Numbered from the stretch's first letter, positions 2,292 through 19,014 are shown. The stretch: DNA of 64,000 nt from an uncultured Acidimicrobiales bacterium (GCA_963791625.1 CAWBTA010000005.1:138508-202507), one strand, 5' to 3'. The notes: generated by a model from the sequence alone, not told the origin. Numbers and translations are program-made.

Positions 2292-3962
2292 TCAGCGAAC
2301 CACTTCGGTCAATTCGGCGTGGACGACGAGGCGTTGCTCGGTGGAGCCGATCGGATGGCACGCGATCAGGTTCATGTTGGCGGTGCCGTTGTCGACTAGG
2401 CCAAGGACATCCTCGGGTGCCACCACCCGACTACCGGTCACGCGGTAGGTCCAACTGATGCCGTCGTCGCTGACCGTGATGGCATCCCCCGCACGCAGCT
2501 CGCCTATCCGCAGGAAAGGTGCGCCGTGGGACGTTCGATGCCCCAGGATGTTCATGGTGCCCAACTCTCCGGGCATCGATGACAAGGACCAGTGCATGGG
2601 GCTGATGTCGAGTGTGTCGTCACTGAGACCATCGCCGAGCGGAGCATCGACACCAATGGCGCCGATGACCACCCGGCCGCTTACCGCGGGCAGGACATTG
2701 TTGACGGGCTTCAGCACGACGGGTGCTGGCGCTCCGGTGAACCAACCACTCACATCGGCCAGAAGATGCATCGGTTGCGAGGTGTACAGACTCACCCCGC
2801 GGAACGAGACCGGCGTGATCACATGGTTGGCGACCGTCTGGCGGCGGTAGCTGGCGTTGACGGTGGACGCCGTTGGCTTGGCCGAACCGGCAGCCCACAC
2901 CGACACGAACCCGGGGCCCTCTGCGTCAACCAGGGTGGTCGTCATGACCACCGCAGAAGCCCGTGTCGCAAGGCCACCGGTGTAGAGAACGGGTACGTCG
3001 ATCGTCCAGTCCTTGCGGGGCTTTAGTCGGTCCTCCACGGGGTTCAAAAGGCCGGCGGCGCGGGTATCGAGCAGGCGAGTGGGCGTGACGGGCACGAACA
3101 GGCCATCGCCAGAGGCGGGAGCGTCGTCGCCGGTGAAGTAGCCGTCGACATCAACGATGACATCCCCACCCGACTGACTGAACACATTGACGGCGCCCTC
3201 ACGCATCGGCACGATCACCTGATTGGCCACCGTGTCGCCCGAGCTTGCGACGTTCAGGTTCGAGGTGTTCGGTCGCTCACCCCCCGCCGCCCAAACGGTG
3301 AAGAACCCCGCCGCCGGTGTGGTGGTGACCGTGAGGTTGAGCACGACGGCGGCAGCCGATCGCGGAACGACGGCCGTCAGGTCGACCATCCGACGGTCGC
3401 CCGCCATGAAAGGGGTGCGACTGCTTCGCGTGTCAAACGCGTGGGTTGGTGCCAGCGGCACTAGGCGGCCAGCGGTGGCCAGGGTCGCAGCCTGGTAGAC
3501 GCCGAAGACATCAACGACAAGATCGGTGGAAACGGATGCGTAGACGGCGAAGCGGCCATCCCCATCAATGGGAACGGTGGCCAGGTTGGCAACAGTCTGG
3601 TCGGCCCGGCTGACGTTGAGGTTCGAACTCTGCGGACGATTGCGGTCGGCGGGATAGGCCGTCAGGAAGCCGGGTCCGTCGGGGTGCACGGCCGTCAGGT
3701 TCACGACCACGGCGGTAGCGCCGGTGGCCACGGACGGGTCCAGGGAGAAGACCATCGTCTTGTCAGCCGCAACTCGTTCGCCAGCAGAACGGGAATCAAA
3801 CAGCCTGGTGGGGGCCAGCGGAACAAAGCGCGACGTTGCCGAAGCCGGCGCTGCCACCGCTGGCTGAGAGGGACTCAGGACACCACCGAGCGAGACAGAA
3901 AGAACAGCAAGTGCGGTTCCGAACGGACAGGTTTTGCGAGCGAATCGGCCGGGCTTGAGCAC
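2292..3962 (-). CDS. Secreted protein: signal peptide, three tandem ~95-aa beta-rich repeats, and a C-terminal sortase catalytic domain
   Basis: N-terminal signal-like hydrophobic segment. Repeats begin F/LVPLxPTRLxDTRS and contain VxNLTV...GFxTxY/W...SNLN. The C-terminus has sortase motifs: ILGHRTSHGAPFLRIGELRAGDAITV (His/TxxxG), NLIACHP (TLxTC-type Cys), and Arg in RLVVHAEL. Confidence 0.7.
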   Translation of the reverse strand: MLKPGRFARKTCPFGTALAVLSVSLGGVLSPSQPAVAAPASATSRFVPLAPTRLFDSRSAGERVAADKTMVFSLDPSVATGATAVVVNLTAVHPDGPGFLTAYPADRNRPQSSNLNVSRADQTVANLATVPIDGDGRFAVYASVSTDLVVDVFGVYQAATLATAGRLVPLAPTHAFDTRSSRTPFMAGDRRMVDLTAVVPRSAAAVVLNLTVTTTPAAGFFTVWAAGGERPNTSNLNVASSGDTVANQVIVPMREGAVNVFSQSGGDVIVDVDGYFTGDDAPASGDGLFVPVTPTRLLDTRAAGLLNPVEDRLKPRKDWTIDVPVLYTGGLATRASAVVMTTTLVDAEGPGFVSVWAAGSAKPTASTVNASYRRQTVANHVITPVSFRGVSLYTSQPMHLLADVSGWFTGAPAPVVLKPVNNVLPAVSGRVVIGAIGVDAPLGDGLSDDTLDISPMHWSLSSMPGELGTMNILGHRTSHGAPFLRIGELRAGDAITVSDDGISWTYRVTGSRVVAPEDVLGLVDNGTANMNLIACHPIGSTEQRLVVHAELTEVVR

Positions 3963-4068
3963 GACGCCCAGCCTTGCCGTGCGTCATCTTGATGGAATCT
4001 AGGAGGATTCAGCGGGTGGTGTTGGTTCCATAAGGAAAGGGTCTCGGCCAGCACCGACGGTGAGAAAA

Positions 4069-4992
4069 TTAGCTCGAATGACTCTCGACTGCCGCTTCCG
4101 ACTGCGAGAATGCGTCGGCCACCTCACCATACGTGAGTTGTTGGGAGGCGAGTGGCACGACGTCTTCCAGCTTGCGGAATGCATGGTCGCCTTCGGAGCT
4201 GGGCATGAAGCGCTTGAAAAACAACCGGGCGATCAGGACCCACAAGAAGGCCGAGCCACCGACCTTCATGATGACGCCCGCGGTTTGCTGATCATTGGCC
4301 ACCGTCATACCGAAAGCCCGGATCGGATGGTCGTAGATCTTGTAGACGGCACGTTCGGCAAAGGTGAGCCATGCGGCTGGAACGGTCGGCACGACCGACA
4401 TGGCGAACAGGTACAGCATTTGGGCACCGGGACCACGGCGGAACTCGGGGATAGGGCCGCACAGGGGCATCCACATCATCAGCGAGGTGAAGACCAGCAC
4501 AAAATGCAAGAAGTAGTGCAGCACTCCGTTGGTGCTGGACAGGTTCACGATGTACGGAATGTGGGTCACCATGAGCCATCCGTTGAACGCCACACCGGCA
4601 ACTACCGGGCTGCTCATCGTGCGGATGCTGCGGTGCACCTTGCCGTCGCCGATAAGCAGGCGAGCCATCCATGTAGGCGTTGCGAGGAGCATGAGCGGCG
4701 GCACGAAGTACGACATGGCCATGTGCTGCACCATGTGCACGCTGTAGAGGTACTGCTCGGCCAGGTCGTGAACGGGATAGTCGGACACGAGCCACAACAG
4801 GCCGAGACCGCCAATGAAACAGTTGCGCTGGCGAGTCGTGATGGTGGGCGTGCCAGCCGGCACCATCTTCGGGCCAATCACACGAACGGTGTAGATGTAC
4901 GCCGCGGCCAGACCCGCAATGAGGAACCACACTTCGGGGTGCGCCCGAAAGTGCCAGATATCCGGGGAGGGGCTCAATTGTGCGGCCAGCAT
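4069..4992 (-). CDS. ctaG: Caa3-type cytochrome c oxidase assembly factor CtaG (Caa3_CtaG family)
   Basis: Polytopic membrane protein; position and similarity match the Bacillus-type CtaG family. Start chosen at internal ATG (MLAAQLSPSP...) preceded by AAGGAAGG; the annotated ORF is longer and overlaps ctaF. Confidence 0.7.
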   Translation of the reverse strand: MLAAQLSPSPDIWHFRAHPEVWFLIAGLAAAYIYTVRVIGPKMVPAGTPTITTRQRNCFIGGLGLLWLVSDYPVHDLAEQYLYSVHMVQHMAMSYFVPPLMLLATPTWMARLLIGDGKVHRSIRTMSSPVVAGVAFNGWLMVTHIPYIVNLSSTNGVLHYFLHFVLVFTSLMMWMPLCGPIPEFRRGPGAQMLYLFAMSVVPTVPAAWLTFAERAVYKIYDHPIRAFGMTVANDQQTAGVIMKVGGSAFLWVLIARLFFKRFMPSSEGDHAFRKLEDVVPLASQQLTYGEVADAFSQSEAAVESHSS

Positions 4993-5006
4993 GACGCCGC
5001 CTTCCT

Positions 5007-5351
5007 TTAGCTCGACCAGAGCTGGAACGTGGTGAGCGCGGCTACGTACACCACGACGGCAAGAATCAGCCCGGACCAGAACAGGCGGCCGAACATCTTG
5101 TCGTCGAACCGGAGGTGCATGAAGAACAACACCACGGTCACGAACTTCACGATCATGATGACAATGAGCAGAACGGTCGGCAGCCACGGGGCGAACGATG
5201 GGTGGATATACGACAGGCCAACTTCGACCGCAGTCATGATGGCCAGATAGACGGCCACCATCACATACTTCTTGTCGGTCCAACTGTGCTCGCCGGCGTG
5301 AGCGTGGGCCTCGACGGCGTGCTCGTTGTGCGCTTCTACTGCTGCGGTCAT
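5007..5351 (-). CDS. ctaF: Cytochrome c oxidase subunit IV, prokaryotic caa3 type (COX4_pro)
   Basis: 114 aa, 3 TM, motif FMHLRFD typical of the family; lies immediately downstream of ctaE. Confidence 0.7.
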   Translation of the reverse strand: MTAAVEAHNEHAVEAHAHAGEHSWTDKKYVMVAVYLAIMTAVEVGLSYIHPSFAPWLPTVLLIVIMIVKFVTVVLFFMHLRFDDKMFGRLFWSGLILAVVVYVAALTTFQLWSS

Positions 5352-5361
5352 GGCATCAACC

Positions 5362-6018
5362 TTAGGACGGGATCAGGTAGACGAGGGTGAAGATAACGAT
5401 CCACACGATGTCGACGAAGTGCCAGTACAGACCAATCAGTTCCACCACTTCAGCCTTACGACCGGGGATCTTGCCGCGCAGCGTCATACCCACGATCGAC
5501 AACAGCATGATGACACCGAGGCTGACGTGCACGCCGTGAAAGCCGGTGAGGGTGAAGAAGCTGGAGCCGAACAGGTTGGTGGTGAACCCGAGGCCCTTCA
5601 GGTAGAACGAGCGGAACTCGAACACCTGAGCGCCAACGAACAACGCTCCGAGAAACGCGGTAGTGCACAGCCAGATGCGCATGCGACGATCGTCGTTGCG
5701 TCCGGCCGCCGTTACCGCGAGCACCATGGTGAGCGAGCTCATCAGTAGCACGAACGACGACACCGAGGTGAACGGAATGTTGTAGAGCTCGTTCGGGTTC
5801 GGGCCTCGCTGCACCCGGCCGCGGTAGAGCATGTACGTGGAGATCAAACCACCGAACAGCAGGCAGTCGGAGCCAAGGAACAACCACATGGCCAGCTTGT
5901 TGTTGGACAAACCCGAGCTGCCGTGGGTGCCATGCTCGGCATGGCCGTCGTCGGCGTGCCCCTGATCGGCGTGATCGTCGCGGCCGTGGTCGGTCACGGT
6001 GTCGAGTACGTCAGACAT
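5362..6018 (-). CDS. ctaE: Cytochrome c oxidase subunit III
   Basis: Cox3 family; C-terminal LYWHFVDIVWIVIFTLVY. Confidence 0.9.
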   Translation of the reverse strand: MSDVLDTVTDHGRDDHADQGHADDGHAEHGTHGSSGLSNNKLAMWLFLGSDCLLFGGLISTYMLYRGRVQRGPNPNELYNIPFTSVSSFVLLMSSLTMVLAVTAAGRNDDRRMRIWLCTTAFLGALFVGAQVFEFRSFYLKGLGFTTNLFGSSFFTLTGFHGVHVSLGVIMLLSIVGMTLRGKIPGRKAEVVELIGLYWHFVDIVWIVIFTLVYLIPS

Positions 6019-7981
6019 GTAGGGCTACCTCGGTTGACGGGCCGGCGGGATTCTCGAAATCGCTGTCATCGGCGGTGGCCGGCTCGATGGCCCAGCCGTA
6101 GGCGGCCATCACGCAGATGGCACCGCCCGCAATGGCGAGGTACGTGCTGAAGATAACTCCAAGCGCAATGATGGGCAGCGAGACCGCCAACACGAGCGGC
6201 CAGTACGACGGCGACGGCATGTGGATGTGCTTGTCGGCGTGGGCGATCTGGTCGGCCAGAATCTCCTCACCCGTGGCAACCTTCACCATATTGCCGTTGG
6301 CATCCTCGGCGTACTTCCGGTGGAAGAACTCGTCCAGATGCGAAACGACCACAATGGAGTCGAAGTTGTGTTCCTTGGGCGGGCTGGTCGTCATCCACTC
6401 ATAGGTACGGGCATCCCACGGATCGAGCGGCGCGGTTCGGGGCTTCTTGCCGGTGATGCCATTGGTCTTGACGACGTTCCAGAGGAAGGTCGCGACCGCA
6501 ATGGCGATGATAAACGAGCCAATGGTTTCGACCAGGTTCCACGGACCAAAGCCGTAGCCGGCCTTGTAGGTATACATGCGGCGGGGCTGACCCTGAAGAC
6601 CGACGATGTGCATGGGCCCGAAGGTGAAATTGGTGCCGATGACCATGAGCCAGAAGTTGATCTTGCCCAACTTCTCATCGAGCATGCGACCAAAGATCTT
6701 GGGCCACCAGTAGTAGAAACCGGAGAACAACCCGAACACCGCGCCACCGAAAAGCACGTAGTGGAAGTGGGCGATGATGTAATACGTGTCGGTCTGCTGC
6801 GTGTCGGACGGGGACACCGCGTGGGTGACACCCGATAGTCCGCCGATGGTGAACTCAACGATGAGGCCGATGGCGAACAGCATGGCGGTGGTGAAGCGCA
6901 GCGTGCCACCCCACAGCGTGCCGACCCAGTTGATGATCTTCACGCCGGTCGGCACCGCGATGAACATGGTGGTGAGTGAGAACACCATCACCGAGATCGG
7001 ACCGAGGCCGGAGGCGAACATGTGGTGAGCCCACACGCCCCAGCCCATGAAGCCGATGGCTGCACCGGAGAACACCACGAACTTGTAACCGAACAGCGGC
7101 TTCTTCGCGAAGACCGGCAGCACTTCGGACACGATGCCGAAGCTGGGCAAGATGAGGATGTAGACCTCGGGGTGCCCGAAGAGCCAGAACAGGTGTTGCC
7201 AGAGCAGTGGGTCGGCACCGGCTTTCACGTCGAAGAACGTGGCCCCGAACCGACGTTGGAAGGTGAGGAGGAACAAAGCGACGGTGATGACCGGAATGGC
7301 GAACACCAGCAGGAACTGAACGACCAGGATCATCCAGGTGAACACCGGCATCATCATCATCTTCATGCCGGGCGCCCGCATGTTGAGGATGGTGACAATG
7401 AGGTTGATGGAACCGGTGAGGGAGGCGATACCGGTGATCTGGAGAGCGAGCGCCCAGAAGTCCATACCGTGGCTTGGCGAGAAGATGGGGCCGGTGTTGG
7501 GGGCGTAGGCGAACCAGCCACCGTCAGGCAATCCGCCGAGCAGCGGTGACAAATACAGGAAGATGCCACCGGACAGGAAGCACCAGAATCCGAAGGCATT
7601 CATGCGGGGGAATGCAACGTCTCGGGCACCAATCTGCAGTGGCACGAAGTAGTTGGCGAATGCGGCCGCCATCGGCATCACGAAGAGGAACACCATGGTT
7701 GTGCCGTGGGTGGTGAACAGCTCGTTGTAGAGCTGCGCGTTCACGAACTTGCCGTTGGGCTGTGCCAACTGAATGCGGATCAGGAGGGCCTCGATGCCAC
7801 CCACAAGGAAGAAGAACATGGCGGCTGCGCCGTACATGATGCCGAGCTTCTTGTGGTCGACGGTGAAGAGCCAGCTCTTCCAGCCCTTGGTTTGCACCGG
7901 GCGATGGAAGTTGCCAGCGGCCTGCTTGGGCGACACGAAGGAGGCGGGCGCCAGTTCTCGGGGACGTTCAATGATTGCCAT
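6011..7981 (-). CDS. ctaD: Cytochrome c oxidase subunit I with a C-terminal extension resembling the actinobacterial subunit IV TM hairpin
   Basis: All canonical ligands present (TTHGT, GHPEVY, WAHHMF, HFHYV). The ~80-aa C-terminal extension (SPSYWPLVLAVSLPIIALG...) resembles actinobacterial CtaF. Confidence 0.95.
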   Translation of the reverse strand: MAIIERPRELAPASFVSPKQAAGNFHRPVQTKGWKSWLFTVDHKKLGIMYGAAAMFFFLVGGIEALLIRIQLAQPNGKFVNAQLYNELFTTHGTTMVFLFVMPMAAAFANYFVPLQIGARDVAFPRMNAFGFWCFLSGGIFLYLSPLLGGLPDGGWFAYAPNTGPIFSPSHGMDFWALALQITGIASLTGSINLIVTILNMRAPGMKMMMMPVFTWMILVVQFLLVFAIPVITVALFLLTFQRRFGATFFDVKAGADPLLWQHLFWLFGHPEVYILILPSFGIVSEVLPVFAKKPLFGYKFVVFSGAAIGFMGWGVWAHHMFASGLGPISVMVFSLTTMFIAVPTGVKIINWVGTLWGGTLRFTTAMLFAIGLIVEFTIGGLSGVTHAVSPSDTQQTDTYYIIAHFHYVLFGGAVFGLFSGFYYWWPKIFGRMLDEKLGKINFWLMVIGTNFTFGPMHIVGLQGQPRRMYTYKAGYGFGPWNLVETIGSFIIAIAVATFLWNVVKTNGITGKKPRTAPLDPWDARTYEWMTTSPPKEHNFDSIVVVSHLDEFFHRKYAEDANGNMVKVATGEEILADQIAHADKHIHMPSPSYWPLVLAVSLPIIALGVIFSTYLAIAGGAICVMAAYGWAIEPATADDSDFENPAGPSTEVALHV

Positions 7982-7992
7982 GGTTGCCGCTC

Positions 7993-9249
7993 CTACTTCA
8001 ACGTCGTCAGGTAGGCGACCAGCTCATCAATCTGCGCCTCGGAGAGGTTGAGATTGGGCATGCCGCGGTAGAGCTTGTCTTTGTTCTGAATCGAGTACAT
8101 CGGTTTCACGGCCGGTGCGTTGCGCAGCCAGGCCTCAAGATCGGCCCGGTTGAGGCAACCATCAGGTGTCCCGGTGGGAAGACCAGCGGTTTTCGGAGCC
8201 GTCTTGGCGTCGCACGCCTCGCTGCGCAGACTGAGGTCGAACATCCCGCCGGCGAACACTGAACGGCTCATGAGGTGGGTGAGGTTCGGAGCGGCGCCGG
8301 AGACGAGCTGCTCGTCGGCCTTCGAGTTCTGCGGTTCGCCCTTGTCATCAACAAGACCGCCCACCTGATGGCAGCGAGCGCACTGGCTGATAAAGGTGGC
8401 CTCACCCTTCGATTCGAGCGTTTCGGCTGTCGGCTTCACGGCGGGCTTGAGCTGGTTGGCAACCCAGGTGGCGAAATCGGCTTCGGAAAGAGCCACCACA
8501 CGCTGACGCATGTTGGCGTGGGAGAGCCCGCAGAACTCGGTGCACTGACCCTCGTAAATGCCGGGCTCACTGGCTTCCATGTTCAGCGGTTGCACGCGGT
8601 TCGGAACGGCGTCACGCTTGCCGTTCAGCTTCGGGATCCAAAACGAGTGGATGACGTCTCGGGAGGTGACGCTGAGGCGCACCTTCTTACCGACGGGGAT
8701 GACCAGTTCGGTGGCGGTGACGATGCCTTCCATGCCTGGCGACTTGTACTGGAACTCCCACCACCACTGCTGACCAATGACGGTGACTTCGAACGCAGTA
8801 TCCTTCGGGCGGTTCGAGATGTCGAAGAGCGTGTTGACGGTTGGCACCGCAACAACAAGCAGGATGGCCGCGGACAGCGCTGTCAGGCTGATTTCGACCT
8901 TGGGGTTACCGTGGGACTGATGCGGAATCGAGTCGTGGCCCGGCCGCTCGCGGAACTTCCAGATGCAGTACACCACGGCGGCCATAACGATGAGACCAAC
9001 CACACCGGCCACTATGAAGATCGGCTCCTGCAGGTTGTCGATGCTGCGGGCGTACTTTCCGCTGGGCTCCCAGGTGTCCTGTGGCGCGTTCGTGGCGCAG
9101 CCGGTGAGGGCGAGCACGAGCCCGCCAAGCACGACCGCTGCGCTCCGCCGGGATGTACGGGCAACGGATGAGATCTCGTTTTCCACATTTCTCACAGTAG
9201 TCATGGTGTGCGAATCAGCCGCAGTTGGGATGTGGGTCGTGCGTCTCAT
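7993..9249 (-). CDS. ctaC: Cytochrome c oxidase subunit II fused to a cytochrome c domain (caa3-type CtaC)
   Basis: CuA centre CTEFCGLSHANM, heme c motif CARCH, lipoprotein-like signal with Cys; start may be 9204 instead. Confidence 0.9.
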   Translation of the reverse strand: MRRTTHIPTAADSHTMTTVRNVENEISSVARTSRRSAAVVLGGLVLALTGCATNAPQDTWEPSGKYARSIDNLQEPIFIVAGVVGLIVMAAVVYCIWKFRERPGHDSIPHQSHGNPKVEISLTALSAAILLVVAVPTVNTLFDISNRPKDTAFEVTVIGQQWWWEFQYKSPGMEGIVTATELVIPVGKKVRLSVTSRDVIHSFWIPKLNGKRDAVPNRVQPLNMEASEPGIYEGQCTEFCGLSHANMRQRVVALSEADFATWVANQLKPAVKPTAETLESKGEATFISQCARCHQVGGLVDDKGEPQNSKADEQLVSGAAPNLTHLMSRSVFAGGMFDLSLRSEACDAKTAPKTAGLPTGTPDGCLNRADLEAWLRNAPAVKPMYSIQNKDKLYRGMPNLNLSEAQIDELVAYLTTLK

Positions 9250-10346
9250 CGGACACCAAATGTTGCGTCAACGGTCTTGCCCGATTCGAGCTTCACCGTG
9301 ATCTTGTAGGGCTTGTCGGGGGTGGATGCCTTTGGGATGTTGATGGTGAGCACCTTCGACTTCCCGTTGCCGATGAACTCGGTGGCGTACTCGGCTTCTG
9401 CTTCCTTCGCGTTGCCGTCTTTGTCGGTCACCACCTTCACGCTCTCCACTACGAGCTGCGCCTTCTCTCCGGTGTCATTGCGGAACATGAGGCTGGTGTT
9501 GAGCGCTCGGGGTACGAGCAGTTGATCCAACACCGCGTCGTCGTGGCGGAACTCGATGCCAGCTTCCGTGACGTTTACCGAGGCCAGCGTGTTGGCCTTG
9601 TTGGCCACCGCGTTGGTGGCCTTCTTCTCACCCTCGGGAATGTTCTCCTCCGCTTTGTGCTCGCCACGGCTGATACCCACGATGCTGAAGGCCACAATGG
9701 CGACCATGCCAACGGTGAGCACGCCCGCCAGCTTTTGGCGGCTGAACGAAGTACGACTGGCCAACCCGACGGCCACCAGCAAGATGATGGTGCCGACAAC
9801 GGCGAACAGAATAATGGCGCCGGTCTCGTTGAGCGAAAGCATGATGCGGGAGAAGCCGAACATGATGGCGCCAATAATGAGTGCGCCGAGGGCCGGGAAC
9901 TCGATGGGGTGGAGGAATCGACTGCGAACGGACGCGTTGTACGCCGGGTCGGCTGAGGCCTTATCGGCCCAACCGGCGATCATCCACTCGAAGCCCGATG
10001 CGAGCAGCACCACGAACCCGACACCGAAGATGCGCTTGTCGGTGACCAGGCCGAGCGCCATGAGGGTGATGGCGATACCGGCCACGACGGGCCACACGCT
10101 GCTTGACACATGCGCCACGGCCGCGGCGGTGGAGTCGGCCGGTGCTTCGGAGTCACGGAATGCAATCAGCAGACCACCGAGGAACCCGCAGGCGAGCATG
10201 GCTGACACCATGACGATGGACTGCATGGTGTCGAGACCGAAGATATAGGTGCCAGGTGACAGCAGCCGGATGACCAATTCGAGGCTGAGGATGCCGCCCA
10301 GGATGGCCGTGACTGCGAAGAAAAACTTTGAGCCGGTAGTAACCAT
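9246..10346 (-). CDS. Polytopic membrane protein (~7 TM) with a C-terminal ~130-aa beta-rich periplasmic domain; candidate ligand-free subunit-II analogue of the pseudo-oxidase module
   Basis: Hydropathy; no metal-binding motif in the C-domain. Start set at the second ATG (MVTTGSKFFF) preceded by AGGGG. Lies between the Cox3-like gene and ctaC. Confidence 0.55.
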   Translation of the reverse strand: MVTTGSKFFFAVTAILGGILSLELVIRLLSPGTYIFGLDTMQSIVMVSAMLACGFLGGLLIAFRDSEAPADSTAAAVAHVSSSVWPVVAGIAITLMALGLVTDKRIFGVGFVVLLASGFEWMIAGWADKASADPAYNASVRSRFLHPIEFPALGALIIGAIMFGFSRIMLSLNETGAIILFAVVGTIILLVAVGLASRTSFSRQKLAGVLTVGMVAIVAFSIVGISRGEHKAEENIPEGEKKATNAVANKANTLASVNVTEAGIEFRHDDAVLDQLLVPRALNTSLMFRNDTGEKAQLVVESVKVVTDKDGNAKEAEAEYATEFIGNGKSKVLTINIPKASTPDKPYKITVKLESGKTVDATFGVR

Positions 10347-10354
10347 CATCGCCC

Positions 10355-10951
10355 CTATTTGGTCACGTAAACGAAGAACCACACGCCGGCGAATGCCACG
10401 GTGAGGAAGTGCCAGTACAGCGCAACCGACGACACGCCTTCGGTCTCGGTGGCCGAGAAGCGACCGCCGAGCGAACGGAACGCGGTGACAGCGGCAATGC
10501 CGAGTCCGATGATGACGGCGAACATGAATGCGCCGGTGGTCGTGTAGAACAACACGTTGAACGCCTTGCCATCCGCAGAAACGATCGGCATCTTCATCTG
10601 GCTGTAGATGAAGGCCTGAGCGTTCATGACCGCCACGCCGAACAGACCGGTGATGGCCAGCGCAATCGAGGCGTCACGTCGGTTGCCACGACGCATGGCG
10701 TAAACCGCCCACTGCGCCGTGATGGACGCAAGCATCATGGTGATGAGCATGGTGTTGGACGGAATCTCGGGGATGCGGACTTTCTTCGGCACCCACGTAG
10801 CGGTAGTGCCTCCGGCCAGATGGCGGTACTTGGCGTACAGCGCCAATAACCCACCGAAGAACATCAGCCCGGCCGCGCACGCAAAAGCGGTGGCGACCAG
10901 TTGGCTGCGGGTTCGGGCGGGGGCAGGCGCCGCAGGGAGAGCGAGGGCCAC
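10355..10951 (-). CDS. Heme-copper oxidase subunit III-like membrane protein (paralogue of ctaE)
   Basis: 5 TM; C-terminal ALYWHFLTVAFAGVWFFVYV matches the Cox3 signature; abuts the Cox1-like gene with no gap. Confidence 0.7.
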   Translation of the reverse strand: MALALPAAPAPARTRSQLVATAFACAAGLMFFGGLLALYAKYRHLAGGTTATWVPKKVRIPEIPSNTMLITMMLASITAQWAVYAMRRGNRRDASIALAITGLFGVAVMNAQAFIYSQMKMPIVSADGKAFNVLFYTTTGAFMFAVIIGLGIAAVTAFRSLGGRFSATETEGVSSVALYWHFLTVAFAGVWFFVYVTK

Positions 10952-12550
10952 TTACGCGTCCTTCCGGTCGTACAGGGGTTGTGCCGATGTGACGGTGAGT
11001 TGGTTGGTGCCCTCAACGGTCCATTCGAGCGATTGGCCTTCCCACGGGTCGATGCCGGTGGTGTCGCCCTTCGTGAAGCCGCGCAGGGCCAGGCCGATGG
11101 TGCCGAGCACCACCAGCGCCATCAGGCCGTAGCCGGCGGTTGCCAGAATGTTGAGGAACTGATGGGGCCCGCTGATTGAGAACGCCACTTCGTCGATGGG
11201 CTGATCGGAGAACGCTGCGATGCCTTCGGGGATACCGACCAGCGCCGCTGCAAGCAACCCGAGCAGCGCAAGAGGCGCCATCTTCTTGTCATCAATGCGG
11301 CGGCCCCACAGACGAGGACCCCAATAGGCCAGCGCACCGCAGCCGCCGAGCAGAACAGCGAACAGCATGGTGGAGGCCTGAGCCGCTGGGTAGATGGTGC
11401 TGTTGATGATGCGCAACCCGTCGGCCGACACGCCCTGCGGGTCCATCAGACCGAGGCGGCGGAACGGCATAAGCACACTCATCGCGGCGGCGAGCAGTCC
11501 GGCGACACCGGCGGCCAGAGCGAAGATAAGCGGTGCACCAAAGGTGGGTTTGCCGGACCGTACGGCCAGACCACTGAGACCGAGCACGAGCAGGAACGGG
11601 AGCACCGTGCTTAGGCTGACGAGAACCATCAGCGGGCGGTAGGTGGTGTTGGCATTGAAGCCGCGCTGCACGTCGGCGGCAAATGAGTTGAGGCCAGCAA
11701 ACCCAATGGCGACCAACATGACGGCTCGCATTGGCTGGCGGACCCGAGCGAACGTGGGCACCACATCACCGATAAACCCGAGCAGGGGCAGCGCAAACAG
11801 CGTGACGCCCGGGTGGGTGAAGGCCCAGTCGATGTAGCTCATGAACTTGGTGGAATCACCGAAGGGCACCTGGCCGTAGCGGTGACTGACATAGAGGTCG
11901 ACGAGGTTGGCAATCAGCACCGGCCAGCTCAACAGCATCACTGAGCAAGCGATGAGGTTGGCGAACGAAAACATCGGTACCCGGTCGAGGGTGAGGCCCG
12001 GCGCCCGCAGGGTGGTGACGGTAGCGACAACGCAGATCGACGCGATGAGAAGCCCAAGGATCACCACGACGAGGCCGGCGAGGAACAATTCGGCGTACCA
12101 GTTGCTACCGCCGCCGGGACCACCGTTGGCAAGAAACGCGCCCACGACCAACACCGAACCGCCAAGCCAGGTGACATAGGAGAGGGTGGCCGCCCTGGGG
12201 AAGGCAATGTTCGAGGCACCAACCTGAAGTGGCACGATGGCGATGGCCAGACCGAGCACGATAGGGGCAACGGCCAGGAACGCCAGACCGACGCGATACA
12301 ACGTGGACATTTGATAGGTGGCGTCAATCGGTAAAAATGTGGCCGAAGAGTCGATTCGATCGGCGGCCAGCAGCACCGCTACGACCATGAGGCCCAGCCC
12401 GGCGACCAGACCGGAACCGGCAAAAAGGCGGCCGATACGGCGGTGGTCAACCGTTGTCGTCCAGTCGGTGACACGGGCGACGACATCGGCCGGGACCGCG
12501 CCATTTGAGGCCGGGGTGTCGAGATGAGCTTCGGTCATGGTCATGGGCAA
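10952..12550 (-). CDS. Heme-copper oxidase subunit I homologue lacking the heme a/a3 and CuB ligands (pseudo-oxidase subunit I)
   Basis: Clear Cox1 fold markers (TTVDHRRIG, VPLQVGASNIAFPR, FTHPGV, C-terminal DPWEGQSLEWTVEG). Aligned to ctaD in this window: H(heme a)->R, Y244->T, HH(CuB)->AD, HFH->AQA. Only 5 His in 532 aa. Confidence 0.8.
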   Translation of the reverse strand: MPMTMTEAHLDTPASNGAVPADVVARVTDWTTTVDHRRIGRLFAGSGLVAGLGLMVVAVLLAADRIDSSATFLPIDATYQMSTLYRVGLAFLAVAPIVLGLAIAIVPLQVGASNIAFPRAATLSYVTWLGGSVLVVGAFLANGGPGGGSNWYAELFLAGLVVVILGLLIASICVVATVTTLRAPGLTLDRVPMFSFANLIACSVMLLSWPVLIANLVDLYVSHRYGQVPFGDSTKFMSYIDWAFTHPGVTLFALPLLGFIGDVVPTFARVRQPMRAVMLVAIGFAGLNSFAADVQRGFNANTTYRPLMVLVSLSTVLPFLLVLGLSGLAVRSGKPTFGAPLIFALAAGVAGLLAAAMSVLMPFRRLGLMDPQGVSADGLRIINSTIYPAAQASTMLFAVLLGGCGALAYWGPRLWGRRIDDKKMAPLALLGLLAAALVGIPEGIAAFSDQPIDEVAFSISGPHQFLNILATAGYGLMALVVLGTIGLALRGFTKGDTTGIDPWEGQSLEWTVEGTNQLTVTSAQPLYDRKDA

Positions 12551-12642
12551 CCCCGCGCGCCGCCGACCGACAAGCCGGTCGAGCGAAACAAGTAGTGAAT
12601 GTCGGTTAGGAGATTACCCATTCGATGGGCTCTAGCCCGAAA

Positions 12643-13812
12643 TCAAGTTCTGGTCAGAGGGATTTTTATGGTGACGATGGCGCCGCCTTCGGGGCGGTTG
12701 GCGGCGGTGGCGACGCCTCCGTGGGCGGCGACGATGGTCTGGACCAACGCCAGGCCGAGGCCGATTTCGCCGCGGGTGTCGCCCCGACGGAACCGCTCAA
12801 ACACGTGGGGCAACATTGCCTCATCGAATCCGGGGCCGTCATCCAGCACGCTCAGCACCCCGTCGCGACCGTCGATAGAGCTTTCCAGCGAGACGTTTTT
12901 TGACCGACGGACCGAGTTGCGCACCAGATTGTCGACGGCCTGACGCAGGAGAGACAGGTCGGCGTCCACCACCACGGCGGCGGTACCCGCAGCGGCGGTG
13001 ACGTTCACGTCGTCGGCTCGGACGGACGACGCGACTTCCTCGGCAAGCAGATCGAGACGTAGGGGTGCCAGGCGAGGCATGGCCTGGCCGCTCTCCAACC
13101 GAGCGAGATCGAGTAACTCATTCACGCCGGCGCTCGCTCGTTCGGCGGCCGCGCGTATCTCGGCCATGGACCGCACATATTCCTCCGATGACCGCGGGCG
13201 GGCCAACGACTGACTGGCGGAGGCGAGAATGACCGACAGAGGGGTGCGCATTTCGTGGGCGGCGTCGGCCAGGAAGCCGCGACGTTCCATCAGCGCCTGG
13301 CGGGCCGGACGGATGACACGGCCGGCCAACCACCAGCCAACCGCCCCCGACGCAAGAATCCAGAGCAGGCCGAGCGTCCAGATGAACGAGTGATACTCGC
13401 TCTTCTTCCGGTTATACGAGGCAAGATCGACAATGGTGGCGAGGCCTTCGCTCTTCTTCGAAATGCGCGCCGCGCCGAGGTAGTCGATGCCACCCTGTCG
13501 GAACTTTTCCGTCGTGAACCCACCCTCGCGGTCACCGATAAGCAGCCGAAGGGGCGGTTGGACGTTGGTCTTGGAGTAAGCCGTAACTTCGCCGTCGGCA
13601 CCGACCGTCCAGATGTTTCGATCGACCGGCTCGCGTTCGTTGTCGAACTCGACGAAGGCCTGCTCGATCCCATCGTGTGCTTCGTTGACCGCAGCGGAAT
13701 CCCACTTCGCATCGTTGGCTCGCAACGCAGCTCGGCTCAGGGGAACGACGGCCAGCAGGCTCAAAAGCGCACACAACGCGGTGGCGAGCCATCGCAGGCG
13801 CCGGAGATTCAT
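12643..13812 (-). CDS. Sensor histidine kinase (HisKA + HATPase_c) with periplasmic sensor domain
   Basis: H-box HEMRTPLSVI, N/G boxes DDGPGF, GLGLALV. Start set at internal ATG (MNLRRLRW) overlapping the RR stop (ATGA). Confidence 0.85.
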   Translation of the reverse strand: MNLRRLRWLATALCALLSLLAVVPLSRAALRANDAKWDSAAVNEAHDGIEQAFVEFDNEREPVDRNIWTVGADGEVTAYSKTNVQPPLRLLIGDREGGFTTEKFRQGGIDYLGAARISKKSEGLATIVDLASYNRKKSEYHSFIWTLGLLWILASGAVGWWLAGRVIRPARQALMERRGFLADAAHEMRTPLSVILASASQSLARPRSSEEYVRSMAEIRAAAERASAGVNELLDLARLESGQAMPRLAPLRLDLLAEEVASSVRADDVNVTAAAGTAAVVVDADLSLLRQAVDNLVRNSVRRSKNVSLESSIDGRDGVLSVLDDGPGFDEAMLPHVFERFRRGDTRGEIGLGLALVQTIVAAHGGVATAANRPEGGAIVTIKIPLTRT

Positions 13813-14477
13813 ACGGCGATACGGTACCCCACGCCTCGGACGGTCTCGATCGGAGCCGGGTTGCTGGGCAGGTCGAGCTTGCGACGCAGGTTGGCGACAT
13901 GCACATCGACCACGTTCGAGAGCCCGTCGTAGTTGGCGTCCCACACCGCTTCGAGCAGGTCCGAGCGGCGGACCACTTCACCGGGACGGACCATGAGTTC
14001 GTGAAGGAGGGAGAACTCGCGAGCGGTCATGGGAATGACGACGTTGCCGCGCCACACGGTATGGCTGGCAGGGTCGAGGCGGACATCACCGGCTTCCACC
14101 ATCGGTGAGCGGGTGGACGTCGGCCGACGAAGCAGCGCTCGCACGCGAGCAGACAATTCGGGAGAATCAAACGGTTTGGTGAGGTAGTCGTCGGCCCCTG
14201 CATCAAGGCCGCCGACCTTGTCCGACAGCGAATCCCGCGCGGTCAGCAGCAGTACGCGGGTGTCGGCCTGTTGCTCGCGCAACCAGCGACAGACATCAAG
14301 GCCGCTGCCGTCGGGCAGGCCGATGTCGAGCACGACCAGCGCGTACGAATTGAGCTCCAACGATTCGATGGCGCTGGCAACGGTGCGTTCCCAGTCGACC
14401 GCGTGACCTTCCTCGACCAGTCCCCGTTGAATGACCGCGCCGAGGGCGGCATCATCTTCCACGAGGAGTAAGCGCAT
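13809..14477 (-). CDS. OmpR-family response regulator
   Basis: Receiver MRLLLVEDD...D, C-terminal winged helix (RVGYRI); start at the second Met. Confidence 0.9.
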   Translation of the reverse strand: MRLLLVEDDAALGAVIQRGLVEEGHAVDWERTVASAIESLELNSYALVVLDIGLPDGSGLDVCRWLREQQADTRVLLLTARDSLSDKVGGLDAGADDYLTKPFDSPELSARVRALLRRPTSTRSPMVEAGDVRLDPASHTVWRGNVVIPMTAREFSLLHELMVRPGEVVRRSDLLEAVWDANYDGLSNVVDVHVANLRRKLDLPSNPAPIETVRGVGYRIAV

Positions 14478-14546
14478 GAACCGCAATGATCCCACGCGGA
14501 ACATGAAGTGAACATGAAGACGCCATTCACAGCAGCTTCATGAAGC

Positions 14547-15797
14547 GTGGCGCATAGTGCATCCATGGCAGACGAAAAGGCCCTCATTGCGCACCTGCTC
14601 CGGCGAACGGGTTTCGGACCGCATCCCGGGCAAGTGGATGAACTGAGCCCAGGCGGATATGCCGCGGCACTCGACAACGTGCTGACCGCGGCACCCCTCA
14701 CGGTTGACCCGCCGACCCTCGGCACCAAGGACGACGAGGCGTTCCTGATCCGATGGTGGCTGGAGATCCTGACCCGACCCGACGCTGGGCTCCACGAAAA
14801 GATGGTGTGGTTCTGGCACGGCCATCTCACCTCCAGTGTCGACAAGGCCGAACCCATTGCGGTCGCTCGGCAACACCAGTTGCTCCGATCGCAGGCCTTC
14901 GGCAACGCTCGCCAGTTGCTGCAGGACATCACCATGGATGCCGCCATGCTCGGCTGGCTTGATGGCAAAACCTCTACCGCGGAGGCGCCGAACGAGAACT
15001 ACGGACGCGAGCTCATGGAGTTGTTCGCGCTGGGTCGTGAGTTCAACGGCGCGCCGACCTACACCCCGGCCGACGTGCAGGCCGCGGCATATGCACTCTC
15101 GGGTTGGGAGGTGGACGACGACAACGCGGCAAAGGTGACGTTCAACACCGAACACGGCCCAACCAAGTCGGTCGACTTCTTGGGCAAGAGCGTTGCCAAT
15201 GCCAAGGATGTGGTGAACGTGGTCTGCGATCACCCGGCATTCGCACCGCTCATTGCCGGCAAGCTCTACCAGTACTTCCACGGCGTCCGCCCCGAGGCGT
15301 CGCTATTGACCTCGCTGGCCGACACGTTCCGAAACGGCAACTTGGAGATAAAGCCTCTGGTCGGCGCCATCTTGCGCGACCCGAGCTTTGTGGAGCATCG
15401 GATGACCCGGCCGCGTTTCCCGATCGAGTGGGTGCTGGCCGCTCACGCCGTGCTCGGACCAACGAAGGACGACGACCTCATCGACACCTTGTCGACGCTC
15501 GGACAGGTGCCGTTCCAGCCACCCAACGTTGCCGGTTGGCCGCTGTCACCCCGTTGGCTTTCGGCCGGTGCAGCCATGACCAGGGCGTCGTACGCGCTGG
15601 ATCGCTCGTCGGATACCGAAGTGACGGCCGACCCGGACCCGGTGGCCTGGATCCTGCGCCGGACCTCGCTCTTCGAGGTGTCAGACACCACCAAGAATGC
15701 GCTCGTCAAGGTCGCCGGCAAGATCGAAAGCAAGCGCGATCGAGCCTCCGCGCTGCATGCCCTGGCCCTGTCCAGCCCCGAATTCACCCTCGCCTGA
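14547..15797 (+). CDS. DUF1800 family protein
   Basis: N-terminal ...IAHLLRRTGFGPHPGQVDEL is typical of DUF1800; conserved partner of DUF1501. Confidence 0.8.
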   Translation: MAHSASMADEKALIAHLLRRTGFGPHPGQVDELSPGGYAAALDNVLTAAPLTVDPPTLGTKDDEAFLIRWWLEILTRPDAGLHEKMVWFWHGHLTSSVDKAEPIAVARQHQLLRSQAFGNARQLLQDITMDAAMLGWLDGKTSTAEAPNENYGRELMELFALGREFNGAPTYTPADVQAAAYALSGWEVDDDNAAKVTFNTEHGPTKSVDFLGKSVANAKDVVNVVCDHPAFAPLIAGKLYQYFHGVRPEASLLTSLADTFRNGNLEIKPLVGAILRDPSFVEHRMTRPRFPIEWVLAAHAVLGPTKDDDLIDTLSTLGQVPFQPPNVAGWPLSPRWLSAGAAMTRASYALDRSSDTEVTADPDPVAWILRRTSLFEVSDTTKNALVKVAGKIESKRDRASALHALALSSPEFTLA

Positions 15798-15813
15798 TCT
15801 CCTCCAAGGAACC

Positions 15814-17160
15814 ATGATGACGCTCAATCGCCGAGATTTCCTGACGAGCACATTGGCCGCCGGCGTGCTGGCTGCCTGCTCGAGCACCAAGAAGAACGCT
15901 TCGCCCGCCACCTCATCGGCGAGCTCGTCAGCAAGTTCGTCGGCGACTACCGCAGGCTCCGACGGTGCTGCCTCCACGACCCCTTCCAGTCCCGACGCCA
16001 CGCCAGAGTCAGCCGGAAAGGCGAAAAAGACGCCCAAGGCTGCGGACCTCGACAAGCGACGGCTGGTCATCATCGAGATGGACGGCGGCAACGACGGCCT
16101 GTCCACCCTCGTGCCCTACGGCATGACCGGCTACAAAGACGTGCGATCACGCATCGGCATCGATCCGAAAGAACTGCTCGCGCTGAACGATCAGATGGGC
16201 CTCATCAAGACCCTTGCGCCACTGCACCAGCGTGGACTTGCGGTGGTGCAAGGGATCGGCACGCCGAACCCTGACGGCTCGCATTTCGCCATGATGGATC
16301 GCTGGTGGACCGGCGATGTTCGCGGCGAAGGTAAGTTGACGACCGGGTTCCTTGGTCGCCTGGCCGATGCCATCGGTGATCCTTCTGCACGCGCGGTGGC
16401 GCTCTCTATCGGCAGCGGTAGCCACCCGGCGTTGCGATCGGAGAAGGCCGCAACGCTGTCAATCCCGAGGGCCGACATCGGCAATGCATTGGCTGGCGCT
16501 AAGGCTGATGACGTGACTCGCTACGCGTTCCAGCAGGCGCTGGCCGACATGGCCACCGAAGCCAATGGTGAACCCGTAGGACTGGCTATGGCACGGCATG
16601 GCAATCGGGACGCCGTGCGGTTCGCCAAGACCCTGCAGGAGCTTCCGGAGAACCAGAGCGAGGGCTACCCCGGCGGAACGCTCTCCGACGGTTTGCAGCT
16701 CGCGGCCCGCCTGCTGCACGCCGACCCGGCGATTCGCATTACCCATGTGCCGATGGGTGCCGACTTTGACACACACACCGACAACCCCGGCCGCCACCCC
16801 GGCCTCATGGAGAATCTGGCCAAAAGCATCGAGGCCTTCATGGCCGATCTTGAACGTCGCGGCATCGCCGACCAAGTGCTCATCGCCACCACGAGCGAGT
16901 TCGGTCGTACCGTCAAGGACAACGGATCGAACGGCCTCGACCACGGCACCGCCTCGTGCGCGTTGCTGCTCGGCCCGGTGAAGGCCGGCCTGCACGGTGA
17001 CCACCCGTCGCTCACCAAACTCGACGGAGATGGACAGCTCATTGCGACGGTCGGCTTCGACCAGTACTACGCCACCATCGCGGAAACCTGGTTCGGCGTG
17101 CCCGCCAGCGACGTCCTACCCGGCAACGTCAAACCGCTCCCCGACCTCCTCCAGGTCTAA
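15814..17160 (+). CDS. DUF1501 family protein with Tat signal and lipobox
   Basis: MMTLNRRDFLTSTLAAGVLAACSS (twin-Arg + LAAC), Ser/Thr-rich linker, DUF1501 core; AAGGA RBS before ATG 15814. Confidence 0.85.
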   Translation: MMTLNRRDFLTSTLAAGVLAACSSTKKNASPATSSASSSASSSATTAGSDGAASTTPSSPDATPESAGKAKKTPKAADLDKRRLVIIEMDGGNDGLSTLVPYGMTGYKDVRSRIGIDPKELLALNDQMGLIKTLAPLHQRGLAVVQGIGTPNPDGSHFAMMDRWWTGDVRGEGKLTTGFLGRLADAIGDPSARAVALSIGSGSHPALRSEKAATLSIPRADIGNALAGAKADDVTRYAFQQALADMATEANGEPVGLAMARHGNRDAVRFAKTLQELPENQSEGYPGGTLSDGLQLAARLLHADPAIRITHVPMGADFDTHTDNPGRHPGLMENLAKSIEAFMADLERRGIADQVLIATTSEFGRTVKDNGSNGLDHGTASCALLLGPVKAGLHGDHPSLTKLDGDGQLIATVGFDQYYATIAETWFGVPASDVLPGNVKPLPDLLQV

Positions 17161-17173
17161 TCGTTGGAGTTGG

Positions 17174-18115
17174 TCAGATGACCAACGCGTCGATGGCCAT
17201 GGCCATGAACAACACGGTGACGTACGTGATGCTGAAGCCGAAGAGGCGCATTGCCTTCTTCTCGGTCGGGTCCTTCGACAGGTCCCAGCAGCCCCAGAGG
17301 AAGAACGCACCGAGCGCGATCGCCGAGATGCCGTAGATCAAACCGAGGTGTGCAACGGGCCAGAACACGAGTGAAGCCACGACGACGCCGACGGTGTACA
17401 TCAGCATCTTGCGGGTGACCACGTCATAGGACTCGACGACGGGCAACATGGGCACATCGGCGGCCCGGTAGTCCTCGACGTAGCGGATGGCGAGCGCCCA
17501 GAAGTGCGGTGGCGTCCACAAGAACATGAGCACGAACAGCACGACTGGCGCCCAAGAGAGGTTGTTGGTGACGGCCGACCAGCCGATCAGCACGGGCGCG
17601 GCACCGGCTGCGCCGCCGATGACGATGTTCTGCTTGGAGGTGCGCTTGAGCCACAGTGTGTAGATGAAGATGTAGAACAATGCGGCGCCCAAGGCGAGGG
17701 CAGCCGAGAGCACGTTCACGAACACGGCCAGGATCAGGCAGGCGACGGCCTCCAACGAAATCGCAAACGTCAGCGCGGCGCGAGGTGTCACCAGGCCGGT
17801 AACCAACGGGCGGCCCTGCGTGCGCGGCATGAGCCGGTCGATGTCACGGTCCACGTACATGTTGACCGCATTGGCTCCGCCGGCCGACAACGTGCCTCCG
17901 ACAAACGTGGCCAGCATCAGCTTCCAAGACGGCCAGCCGCGGTTGGCGACGACCATGGTGGGAATGGTGGAGATAAGCAGCAGTTCAATGATCCGCGGTT
18001 TGGTGAGCGCGACATACGCACCGAGTTTGGAGGTGGGTATCCGCTTGCCGCCGTGCGACGCGATGCCCCCGGGCGTTAGCCGTGACGGCACAAGAGGTCG
18101 AGCACCAACGGACAT
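17174..18115 (-). CDS. ctaB: Protoheme IX farnesyltransferase (heme O synthase)
   Basis: UbiA fold; [11 protein letters not shown]..., [15 protein letters not shown]. Start at internal ATG with perfect AAGGAGG RBS; the upstream part of the annotated ORF is non-coding, and clpS lies opposite. Confidence 0.9.
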
Positions 18116-18238: not shown

Positions 18239-18538
18239 ATGCGCCTCGCCACCACTGCGCCGCTGGAGTCGCCGGTTTTCGAGAGCGACACCGACGTACG
18301 GCCCGACCGGCCGTGGATCGTGCTGGTCTGGAACGACCCCATCAACCTGATGAGCTACGTCACCCTGGTGCTGCAGCGGGTCTTCGGCTATTCCCTGGAA
18401 AAGGCCACATCGCTCATGCTGGATGTCCATGAAAAGGGCCGTGCCGTCGTTTCCTCGGGTAACCGTGAGAAGGCCGAGCTCGATGTCTACCGCCTGCACG
18501 AACACGGCCTGTGGGCCACCATGCAACAGGACGATTGA
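18239..18538 (+). CDS. clpS: ATP-dependent Clp protease adaptor ClpS
   Basis: [27 protein letters not shown]...[10 protein letters not shown] is the ClpS core. Confidence 0.9.
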
Positions 18539-19014
18539 TGTTCCGCAAGCGCCGAGTGGAGCGGACTGATCCACATACCTATGCCCTACGCCTCAGCGCA
18601 GACGAGCGCGAAGCCATCAGCTACCTGGTGCCCCAACTGCGCCAACTGTTGGAACAAGCCGGTCCGAACGACCCTCGCCTGCGTCGCCTGTTCCCCACCA
18701 CATATACCACCGACCCCGAAGCAGAGGCCGAGTACCAGCGGCTGATGCGAGACGATCTCATCAAGTCCCGCTTGTCCTCTTTGGAGATCGTGGAAACGAA
18801 CATCCAGGCCACGTCGTTGTCCGAGGGTGACATGGTGCGATGGATGCAGGCCATCAATGACGCTCGCCTGGTCCTCGGCACCATCCTTGACGTCAGCGAG
18901 GACGACGACCGCTATGAACTCGACGAGGATGACCCGCAAGCTCAAGCCTTCAACCTGTTCCACTACCTCGGTGGCCTGCTCGACGACATCGTCACGGCGC
19001 TGAGTCCGTCGTAA
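18538..19014 (+). CDS. DUF2017 domain protein (conserved clpS neighbour in Actinobacteria)
   Basis: Acidic ~160-aa protein; start overlaps the clpS stop (TGATG). Confidence 0.7.
   Translation: MFRKRRVERTDPHTYALRLSADEREAISYLVPQLRQLLEQAGPNDPRLRRLFPTTYTTDPEAEAEYQRLMRDDLIKSRLSSLEIVETNIQATSLSEGDMVRWMQAINDARLVLGTILDVSEDDDRYELDEDDPQAQAFNLFHYLGGLLDDIVTALSPS

Follow-up and report, generated by a model that had tools for sequence, protein, structure and literature searches.

In an uncultured Acidimicrobiales bacterium, the genes for a caa3-type cytochrome c oxidase are preceded by three genes that together constitute a paralogous copy of the membrane core of an A-family oxidase, namely a ligand-less subunit I (pCox1), a divergent subunit III (pCox3) and a protein with a subunit-IV-like hairpin (X). 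The genes lie in a stretch of 64,000 nucleotides (nt) of this genome (GCA_963791625.1, CAWBTA010000005.1:138508-202507), hereafter called the window, to which all coordinates refer unless another locus is named. The three open reading frames (ORFs) are present where an earlier note on this DNA had placed them, at 9246-12550, and pCox1, pCox3, X and the cta genes of the oxidase are all encoded on the minus strand. The triad is under purifying selection, and the array ctaB-pCox1-pCox3-X-ctaC-ctaD-ctaE-ctaF-ctaG occurs in several lineages of the Acidimicrobiia. We see an even chance that the module, a cofactor-free paralogue of the oxidase core that would be co-produced with the caa3 enzyme, serves as its non-catalytic structural partner. 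The module is probably either attached to that oxidase or involved in assembling it.

pCox1 is homologous to the subunit I with 12 transmembrane (TM) helices, in sequence as well as in fold. It matches Pfam COX1 (PF00115) with an E value of 5.4e-29 (101.8 bits against a cutoff of 34.8), the motifs quoted in the earlier note in support of subunit I membership are all present, and BLASTP aligns it with the CtaD encoded 4 kb downstream at 23% identity (E 5e-32). An AlphaFold model based on an alignment of 26 sequences contains 12 TM helices and has a predicted local distance difference test score (pLDDT) of 87 and a predicted template modelling score (pTM) of 0.89. Searched with Foldseek, this model superposes on the solved subunit I of a caa3 oxidase (2yev_A; template modelling score, TM-score, 0.83, E 1e-19) and equally well on actinobacterial CtaD (TM-score 0.83). 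On the NCBIfam models for genuine subunits I the protein stays far under the cutoffs, with 151.8 bits on CtaD_CoxA (TIGR02891; cutoff 670.75) and 129 bits on cyt_aa3_Actin (cutoff 880). The ORF of 532 amino acids (aa) at 10952-12550 that had been reported does exist and begins with a TTG at 12550, but the true start is likely the ATG at 12544, giving a protein of 530 aa (10952-12544), because both an invariant methionine of the family and a homologue of 530 aa (P0001) match this position.

For quantification of the loss of functional residues, 62 pCox1 sequences were aligned with 52 CtaD sequences from the same loci, and 17 functional positions were scored in R. sphaeroides numbering. The scored positions include the ligand histidines H102, H284, H333, H334, H419 and H421, the cross-linked tyrosine Y288, D412 of the Mg site, the heme-propionate arginines R481 and R482, the D-channel residues N121, D132 and N139, E286, and the K-channel residues T359 and K362. 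All 17 positions are invariant among the 52 CtaD sequences and none is conserved among the 62 pCox1 sequences. The window pCox1 lacks 16 of the 17 residues and keeps only H284, the first CuB histidine; at the other five ligand positions no histidine was found in the BLASTP alignment or in two MAFFT alignments, which bears out the earlier statement that five of the six ligand histidines are gone. The registers given at that time need some revision, since the heme a histidine aligns with Tyr85 and not with Arg86, and the HFH motif aligns with Q-A-S instead of A-Q-A, while the HH pair aligns with A-D, as stated, in BLASTP but with Q-R in the family alignment. These corrections leave the conclusion of ligand loss unchanged. 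The cross-linked Y288, rightly said to be substituted, is a threonine in the window pCox1 and Y, F, I or L elsewhere in the family, without the partner histidine.

The position of H284 is occupied by glutamine in 58 of the 62 pCox1 sequences (and by histidine in 2), and that of H333 by glutamine in 61; in the window these two former CuB-ligand positions are residues 248 and 295 in the numbering of the 532-aa ORF, at approximately 11807 and 11666. The remaining ligand positions carry Y/F, V/A/T and V/L/I in the family, with a tyrosine at the heme a position His102 in 72 of 120 sequences. Residues of the proton channels have all been replaced, mostly by small or hydrophobic ones (D132 by S/A, K362 by V and N121 by I/V/L). 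Judged by its residues, the pseudo-oxidase should be unable to reduce O2 or to pump protons via the canonical channels.

pCox1 evolves approximately twice as fast as the neighbouring CtaD, and the difference is unevenly distributed along the protein. Constraint relative to CtaD is weakest in TM6-TM9 and the adjoining loops, the region of the former binuclear centre, and strongest in loops 2-3, 3-4 and 4-5, in TM12 and at the C-terminus, a pattern in keeping with a scaffold that was preserved while its core lost its function. The family also has conserved residues of its own, namely the glutamines at the H284 and H333 positions, Q80, R65 and an NGGPGGG loop. In the cultured Iamia sp. SCSIO 61187 (CP050948.1; locus L082, 6808-8337), pCox1 has histidines at both axial positions of the low-spin heme (the equivalents of H102 and H421), while the ligands of CuB and heme a3 and the propionate arginines are missing. 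This bis-His pair was seen in 1 of 68 pCox1 sequences, that of Iamia; we therefore rejected a low-spin heme site kept throughout the family and treat the pair as a relic, perhaps of stepwise decay, or a chance occurrence.

The second gene of the triad, pCox3 (10355-10951), encodes a short, five-helix form of subunit III with 198 aa. It passes the Pfam COX3 model (PF00510) with E 3.1e-14 (53.9 bits against a cutoff of 23.8), and hhalign pairs it with CtaE at a probability of 98% (E 7e-15); on the NCBIfam model aa3_CtaE_Actin it reaches 74 bits against a cutoff of 190. The residues E134, H161, H164, H200 and D203, which are invariant in the CtaE proteins of the same loci (numbering of the window CtaE), are replaced in the pCox3 family by I, F, L, Y and T, respectively, with the window protein having a histidine where the family has the tyrosine at the H200 position. 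Like pCox1, the pCox3 family carries conserved residues of its own.

Protein X had been described as a 7-TM protein with a beta-rich domain, and this description holds: seven helices are predicted, followed by a C-terminal beta domain. The mechanical ORF spans 9246-10382, but the start is probably the ATG at 10349, where the family alignments and a homologue of 367 aa place it, so that X comprises 367 aa (9246-10349). The window protein matched no family in Pfam or NCBIfam. A similarity was found for residues 78-121, which cover TM3-4 and begin with S-x-W-P, and which hhalign aligns with the C-terminal tail of CtaD over 44 columns (probability 95%, E 5e-8). Compared with the structures in the PDB, a profile of 26 X homologues gave a weak match to CtaF of C. 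glutamicum (7q21_F, E 0.026, residues 6-113) and another weak match to a type-1 copper domain (E 0.054). Residues 68-108 also matched Cox3 entries of the PDB in their N-terminal helices, but not significantly (E 0.35-1.3), and this match was disregarded. Among the 26 members, 10 weakly match the Pfam subunit IV family Cyt_c_ox_IV (PF12270; best E 0.0018, all below the cutoff) and 8 weakly match Cupredoxin_1. It should be mentioned that pCox1 is devoid of the subunit-IV-like tail present on the genuine CtaD; with a hairpin that is probably homologous to that tail, X could supply it to pCox1 in trans.

The C-terminal domain of X has the fold of a cupredoxin but lacks the copper ligands: the X family alignment shows no conserved His, Cys or Met in this domain, and in the window protein the domain has no Cys at all. 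The suggestion that X could stand in for subunit II is thus upheld as far as the fold is concerned and fails with respect to the copper ligands and the distribution of the domain. X does not match Pfam COX2 (PF00116/PF02790), and hhalign against CtaC is not significant (probability approximately 1%). About half of the best X matches are only 260-295 aa long and have a short acidic tail in place of the cupredoxin domain; this short form occurs in Iamia sp. SCSIO 61187, in a Microthrixaceae genome and on four other long contigs. We therefore rejected X as a true subunit II, on account of the missing CtaC similarity, the missing copper ligands and the absence of the domain in many lineages. The conserved part of X is the 7-TM core with the subunit-IV-like hairpin, and the cupredoxin domain is confined to certain lineages. 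Judging by where Lys and Arg occur in the loops, we infer an N-in, C-out topology. The cupredoxin domain would then be extracellular and the TM4-TM5 loop, with its conserved motif W-x-D-R-A-S-x-D-x-x-Y-N, cytoplasmic. The N-terminus, M-x-T-T-G-S-K-F/L-F/W (window 10325-10349), is nearly invariant in homologues that are otherwise 30% identical, a conservation of the M-x-TTGSK motif that is unusually strong for an N-terminal tail.

The three genes are packed tightly against one another and against the oxidase genes. The TAA of pCox1 directly abuts the GTG start of pCox3 with a gap of 0 nt, as had been observed before, the stop of pCox3 is 5 nt from the start of X, and the stop of X overlaps the start of ctaC as ATGA. 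The median intergenic distances in 46-74 loci are between -8 and +13.5 nt. A scan of the region 3900-13000 for promoters and terminators gave counts not above those of shuffled sequence. In one genome (locus L041, 4344-6785) X and ctaC form a single ORF of 813 aa with no intervening stop, either a real fusion or a sequencing error; if real, it would directly link the pseudo-module to the genuine subunit II.

The triad runs co-directionally into ctaC-ctaD-ctaE-ctaF-ctaG, as the earlier note had stated, and these genes were assigned with Pfam and NCBIfam. The genuine subunit II, ctaC (7993-9249), contains the Pfam domains COX2, COX2_TM and Cytochrom_C and scores 198 bits on NCBIfam CoxB (cutoff 147.7); the oxidase is of the caa3 type, as seen from the cytochrome c domain fused to this subunit. 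The genuine subunit I, ctaD (6011-7981; Pfam COX1 E 9e-156), has all ligands and 17 of the 17 functional residues, scores 682.8 bits on CtaD_CoxA, just above the cutoff of 670.75, and ends in a fused two-helix tail of the subunit IV type, recognised by Pfam Cyt_c_ox_IV at residues 589-633. It is followed by the genuine subunit III, ctaE (5362-6018; Pfam COX3 E 1.6e-15), and by ctaF (5007-5351; Pfam COX4_pro E 1.8e-10), a prokaryotic subunit IV of the COX4_pro type. The genuine oxidase thus combines two kinds of subunit IV, the tail of CtaD (approximately 110 residues, 6011-6350) and the separate ctaF after ctaE. The caa3 assembly factor ctaG (4069-4992) is recognised by NCBIfam caa3_CtaG and by Pfam Caa3_CtaG (E 1.9e-39, ORF residues 128-357); its start is placed by inference at Met98 of the mechanical ORF 4069-5283.

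To what extent the triad belongs with the oxidase can be seen from its distribution. A word-indexed protein search brought up 486 pCox1 relatives with identities as low as 35% (E 1e-78), and in a scan with one genome per species at least 568 genomes encode a relative; the best 80 of these are almost all labelled Acidimicrobiia, Acidimicrobiales, Ilumatobacteraceae or unclassified Actinomycetota. The carriers that have a name, cultured Iamia among them, are of the Acidimicrobiia type; a few metagenome-assembled genomes labelled Bifidobacterium also carry one, which looks like an error of binning or taxonomy. In an exhaustive hidden Markov model search with the X profile, 1168 clusters (at 50% identity) reached E <=1e-3, and 615 of them reached E <=1e-10. 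Starting from the triad, we examined 81 genome loci, and the order pCox1-pCox3-X-ctaC-ctaD-ctaE-ctaF, usually followed by ctaG, was found in every sufficiently long one. Six more loci, including that of Iamia sp. SCSIO 61187, have a divergent ctaA followed by ctaB-pCox1-pCox3-X-ctaCDEF and, in five of the six, then ctaG, which brings the loci examined from this side to 87.

An independent test in the reverse direction was made by scanning metagenome contigs with the window CtaD and retaining loci with at least 4.7 kb upstream (n=49). The full triad is present in 48 of these 49 loci, and thereby in all 48 cta operons among them; in loci with less upstream sequence, whatever part of the triad could fit was present. 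The remaining locus (L154) was considered as a cta operon devoid of the triad and rejected as such, since its ctaD is an orphan with no adjoining ctaC or ctaE. This orphan paralogue (6923-9013 on its metagenome contig) encodes 696 aa and is 69% identical to the window CtaD. In the 87 and 48 loci together, the triad was not found apart from a cta operon.

The gene upstream of the triad is also conserved. In 48 of 51 loci, pCox1 is preceded, at a distance of no more than 600 nt, by the end of a homologue of ctaB, the gene for heme o synthase. In the window, ctaB (17174-18115, minus; NCBIfam NF003349, 395 bits against a cutoff of 246) is split from pCox1 by a block of 4.6 kb (12643-17160), consisting of a DUF1800/DUF1501 gene pair on the plus strand (14547-15797 and 15697-17160) and the genes for a response regulator (13809-14504) and a histidine kinase (12643-13944) on the minus strand. 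The block looks like a lineage-specific insertion and is shared by close relatives only. The two-component system, correctly reported to lie upstream of pCox1 in the window, has this position only in close relatives (L002 and L038), the conserved neighbour being ctaB; a functional tie between the triad and the two-component system as a conserved feature was therefore rejected, since elsewhere ctaB abuts pCox1. Beside ctaB, and divergent from it, are the genes for ClpS and a DUF2017 protein (18239-19005, plus), as in nearly all related loci, and in Iamia-type loci, though not in the window, ctaA (heme a synthase) is located between ClpS and ctaB.

Two further features of the window can be noted. 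A secreted protein of 556 aa (2292-3962, minus) has a C-terminal sortase domain, best matching class E at a score below the cutoff, preceded by three repeats of approximately 120 aa with the motif P-T-R-L-F-D-[ST]-R. A DDE transposase gene (59595-61178, minus; DDE_Tnp_1, DUF772) points to an insertion sequence close to the window end.

Selection on the triad was estimated as the ratio of nonsynonymous to synonymous substitution rates (dN/dS) relative to two close relatives. The values were 0.08-0.10 for pCox1, 0.06-0.14 for pCox3 and 0.12-0.14 for X, compared with 0.075-0.10 for ctaC, ctaE and ctaF and 0.03 for ctaD, and more than 130 independent loci have unbroken reading frames. These values bear directly on the idea that the triad is a decaying duplicate or an assembly artefact, in other words a set of pseudogenes or a version of ctaD and ctaE riddled with errors. 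The low identity to CtaD (23%) and the lost catalytic residues are what such a copy would show, but the dN/dS ratios, the intact frames, the strict synteny, the residues conserved specifically in the family and the confident fold prediction led us to reject it, and we consider it practically out of the question. The opposite claim of the earlier note, that pCox1 is a conserved and divergent paralogue, accordingly stands.

As to the function of the triad, we propose that pCox1, pCox3 and X would assemble into a cofactor-free pseudo-oxidase subcomplex through retained contacts of the I-III-IV type, that they would be made together with the caa3 oxidase CtaCDEF, and that the subcomplex, as a lateral partner or a supercomplex spacer, may stabilise, position or regulate the active enzyme. 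A more specific form of this proposal, in which the caa3 oxidase of the Acidimicrobiia would be an asymmetric pair with the pseudo-oxidase as a stoichiometric and obligatory partner for the stability of CtaCDEF, for supercomplex architecture or for regulation, we put forward tentatively and think somewhat more likely to be wrong than right. In a mirror-tree analysis of 39 loci, pCox1 and X co-vary more tightly than any other pair (r 0.90; partial 0.77 when controlling for ctaB distance), and the co-variation of each of them with CtaC (partial 0.70) equals or exceeds that of the genuine CtaD, CtaE and CtaF with CtaC. This is suggestive of a partnership, but the analysis has a single phylogenetic control and no significance estimate, and this is one of several points that weigh against a structural partner. 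A passive scaffold fails to explain the strongly conserved glutamines at the two former CuB positions, co-transcription would fit a role in biogenesis or an unrelated but co-regulated function equally well, and, given the bis-His pair of Iamia, binding of one heme by a small number of members is conceivable. To our knowledge no heme-copper oxidase needs such a partner, and the role would be without precedent.

The triad could instead act as a scaffold in biogenesis, a transient assembly platform or chaperone outside the mature enzyme that, much as NifEN does for NifDK, would hold CtaC, CtaE or other subunits, or the delivery factors for heme a or copper, until CtaD has been metallated. The position of ctaB immediately upstream in most loci, the divergent ctaA of Iamia-type loci and the assembly factor ctaG at the end of the array would all agree with this, as would the retention of subunit-contact regions around a lost core. 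Position says little, however, because Bacillus has the order ctaB-ctaCDEF-ctaG without any such module; furthermore, the triad offers no conserved His, Cys or Met by which heme or copper could be held, even briefly, and its short or overlapping junctions with structural genes suggest similar levels of production, which would be unusual for a chaperone. We therefore regard a biogenesis scaffold as unlikely, though worth keeping in mind. An independent membrane function, with the Cox1 fold re-used as an ion or small-molecule channel, a transporter or a sensor that is only co-regulated with the oxidase, would account for the family's own polar residues in or near the membrane (the glutamine pair, Q80, R65 and the NGGPGGG loop of pCox1) and for the invariant TTGSK motif and the conserved TM4-TM5 loop of X, but it fits poorly with the replacement of the proton-channel residues by mostly small or hydrophobic ones and with the failure to find the triad away from a cta operon, and the sensor variant has lost its positional argument now that the two-component system is seen to be a local insertion. 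Such a function seems to us distinctly unlikely. It is highly improbable, in our view, that the triad is a cryptic redox enzyme which binds a cofactor through non-canonical ligands (Tyr, Gln, Arg or bis-His), or a quinone, and carries out another redox reaction. The frequent tyrosine at the His102 position, the Iamia histidines and the H284 histidine kept in the window copy could be read in this way, but the candidate ligands are not family-wide, both propionate-binding arginines are lost, and the cupredoxin domain, often absent altogether, has no copper ligands.

Among known systems, the module is closest to the A-family oxidase core, as represented by the Thermus thermophilus caa3 oxidase (2YEV) and the oxidase of the actinobacterial bcc-aa3 supercomplex. 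In addition to the common 12-TM fold, there is homology between pCox1 and CtaD and between pCox3 and CtaE, the X hairpin is a probable homologue of the subunit-IV-like tail, and pCox1 shares the loop motifs TxDHK/RxIG, VPLQxGAxxxAFPR, RAPGM and DPWxxxxLEW. It differs in the absence of the ligands for heme a, heme a3, CuB and Mg, of the cross-linking Tyr, of the D- and K-channel residues and of the propionate arginines. Compared with the actinobacterial subunit IV CtaF (PF12270), X has three further TM helices, the conserved TM4-TM5 loop and, here, a cupredoxin domain. Subunit II of the E. coli cytochrome bo3 quinol oxidase, CyoA, is a cupredoxin that has lost CuA; X differs in that its sequence does not detectably resemble Cox2 or CyoA, that it has seven TM helices where CyoA has two, and that many family members do not have the cupredoxin domain. 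Inactive paralogues as partners are found elsewhere, such as CydB beside CydA in cytochrome bd and NifEN beside NifDK, and we know of no such inactive partner for any heme-copper oxidase. The likeness is an analogy, in that a duplicated catalytic subunit without its cofactor sites is kept as a structural partner or scaffold and its gene adjoins the active copy; there is no homology to the pseudo-oxidase, for which physical association is our proposal. Other members of the heme-copper oxidase superfamily with altered active sites have likewise been found recently by genome mining. One of them is gNOR, in which a single His is replaced; a superfamily survey describes it as the first family in which the active-site histidines, completely conserved elsewhere, are not all kept (Murali et al., PNAS 2024, PMC11214002). 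pCox1 goes considerably further, with five or six of the six ligand histidines missing and both heme sites gone.

In support of the earlier claim that a cofactor-free oxidase scaffold is not a described feature of actinobacterial respiratory loci, neither Pfam nor NCBIfam has a model dedicated to pCox1, pCox3 or X, and no description of a ligand-less subunit I family was found in the full-text literature, where most subscription journals were not covered and an earlier mention is possible. The proteins themselves are present in databases under other names: RefSeq lists the triad of Iamia sp. SCSIO 61187 (locus tags HC251_00710 to HC251_00720) as "cbb3-type cytochrome c oxidase subunit I", "cytochrome c oxidase subunit 3" and "hypothetical protein", and IMG lists pCox1 as "heme/copper-type cytochrome/quinol oxidase subunit 1". 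As a result, metabolic reconstructions of Acidimicrobiia from environmental genomes can wrongly count a second, and even a high-affinity, oxidase.

Heme-copper oxidases are among the most-studied membrane enzymes, and here a family of the superfamily has given up its cofactor sites and is nevertheless maintained by purifying selection. In all cta operons examined, from several Acidimicrobiia lineages, it accompanies an active oxidase without exception. Some carriers, Iamia for instance, are in culture, which makes the module accessible to experiments. If the triad is a structural partner, it would represent a new principle of oxidase organisation, and if the caa3 oxidase is indeed an asymmetric pair, no pseudoenzyme subcomplex would have been known in the heme-copper oxidase superfamily before this pseudo-oxidase.

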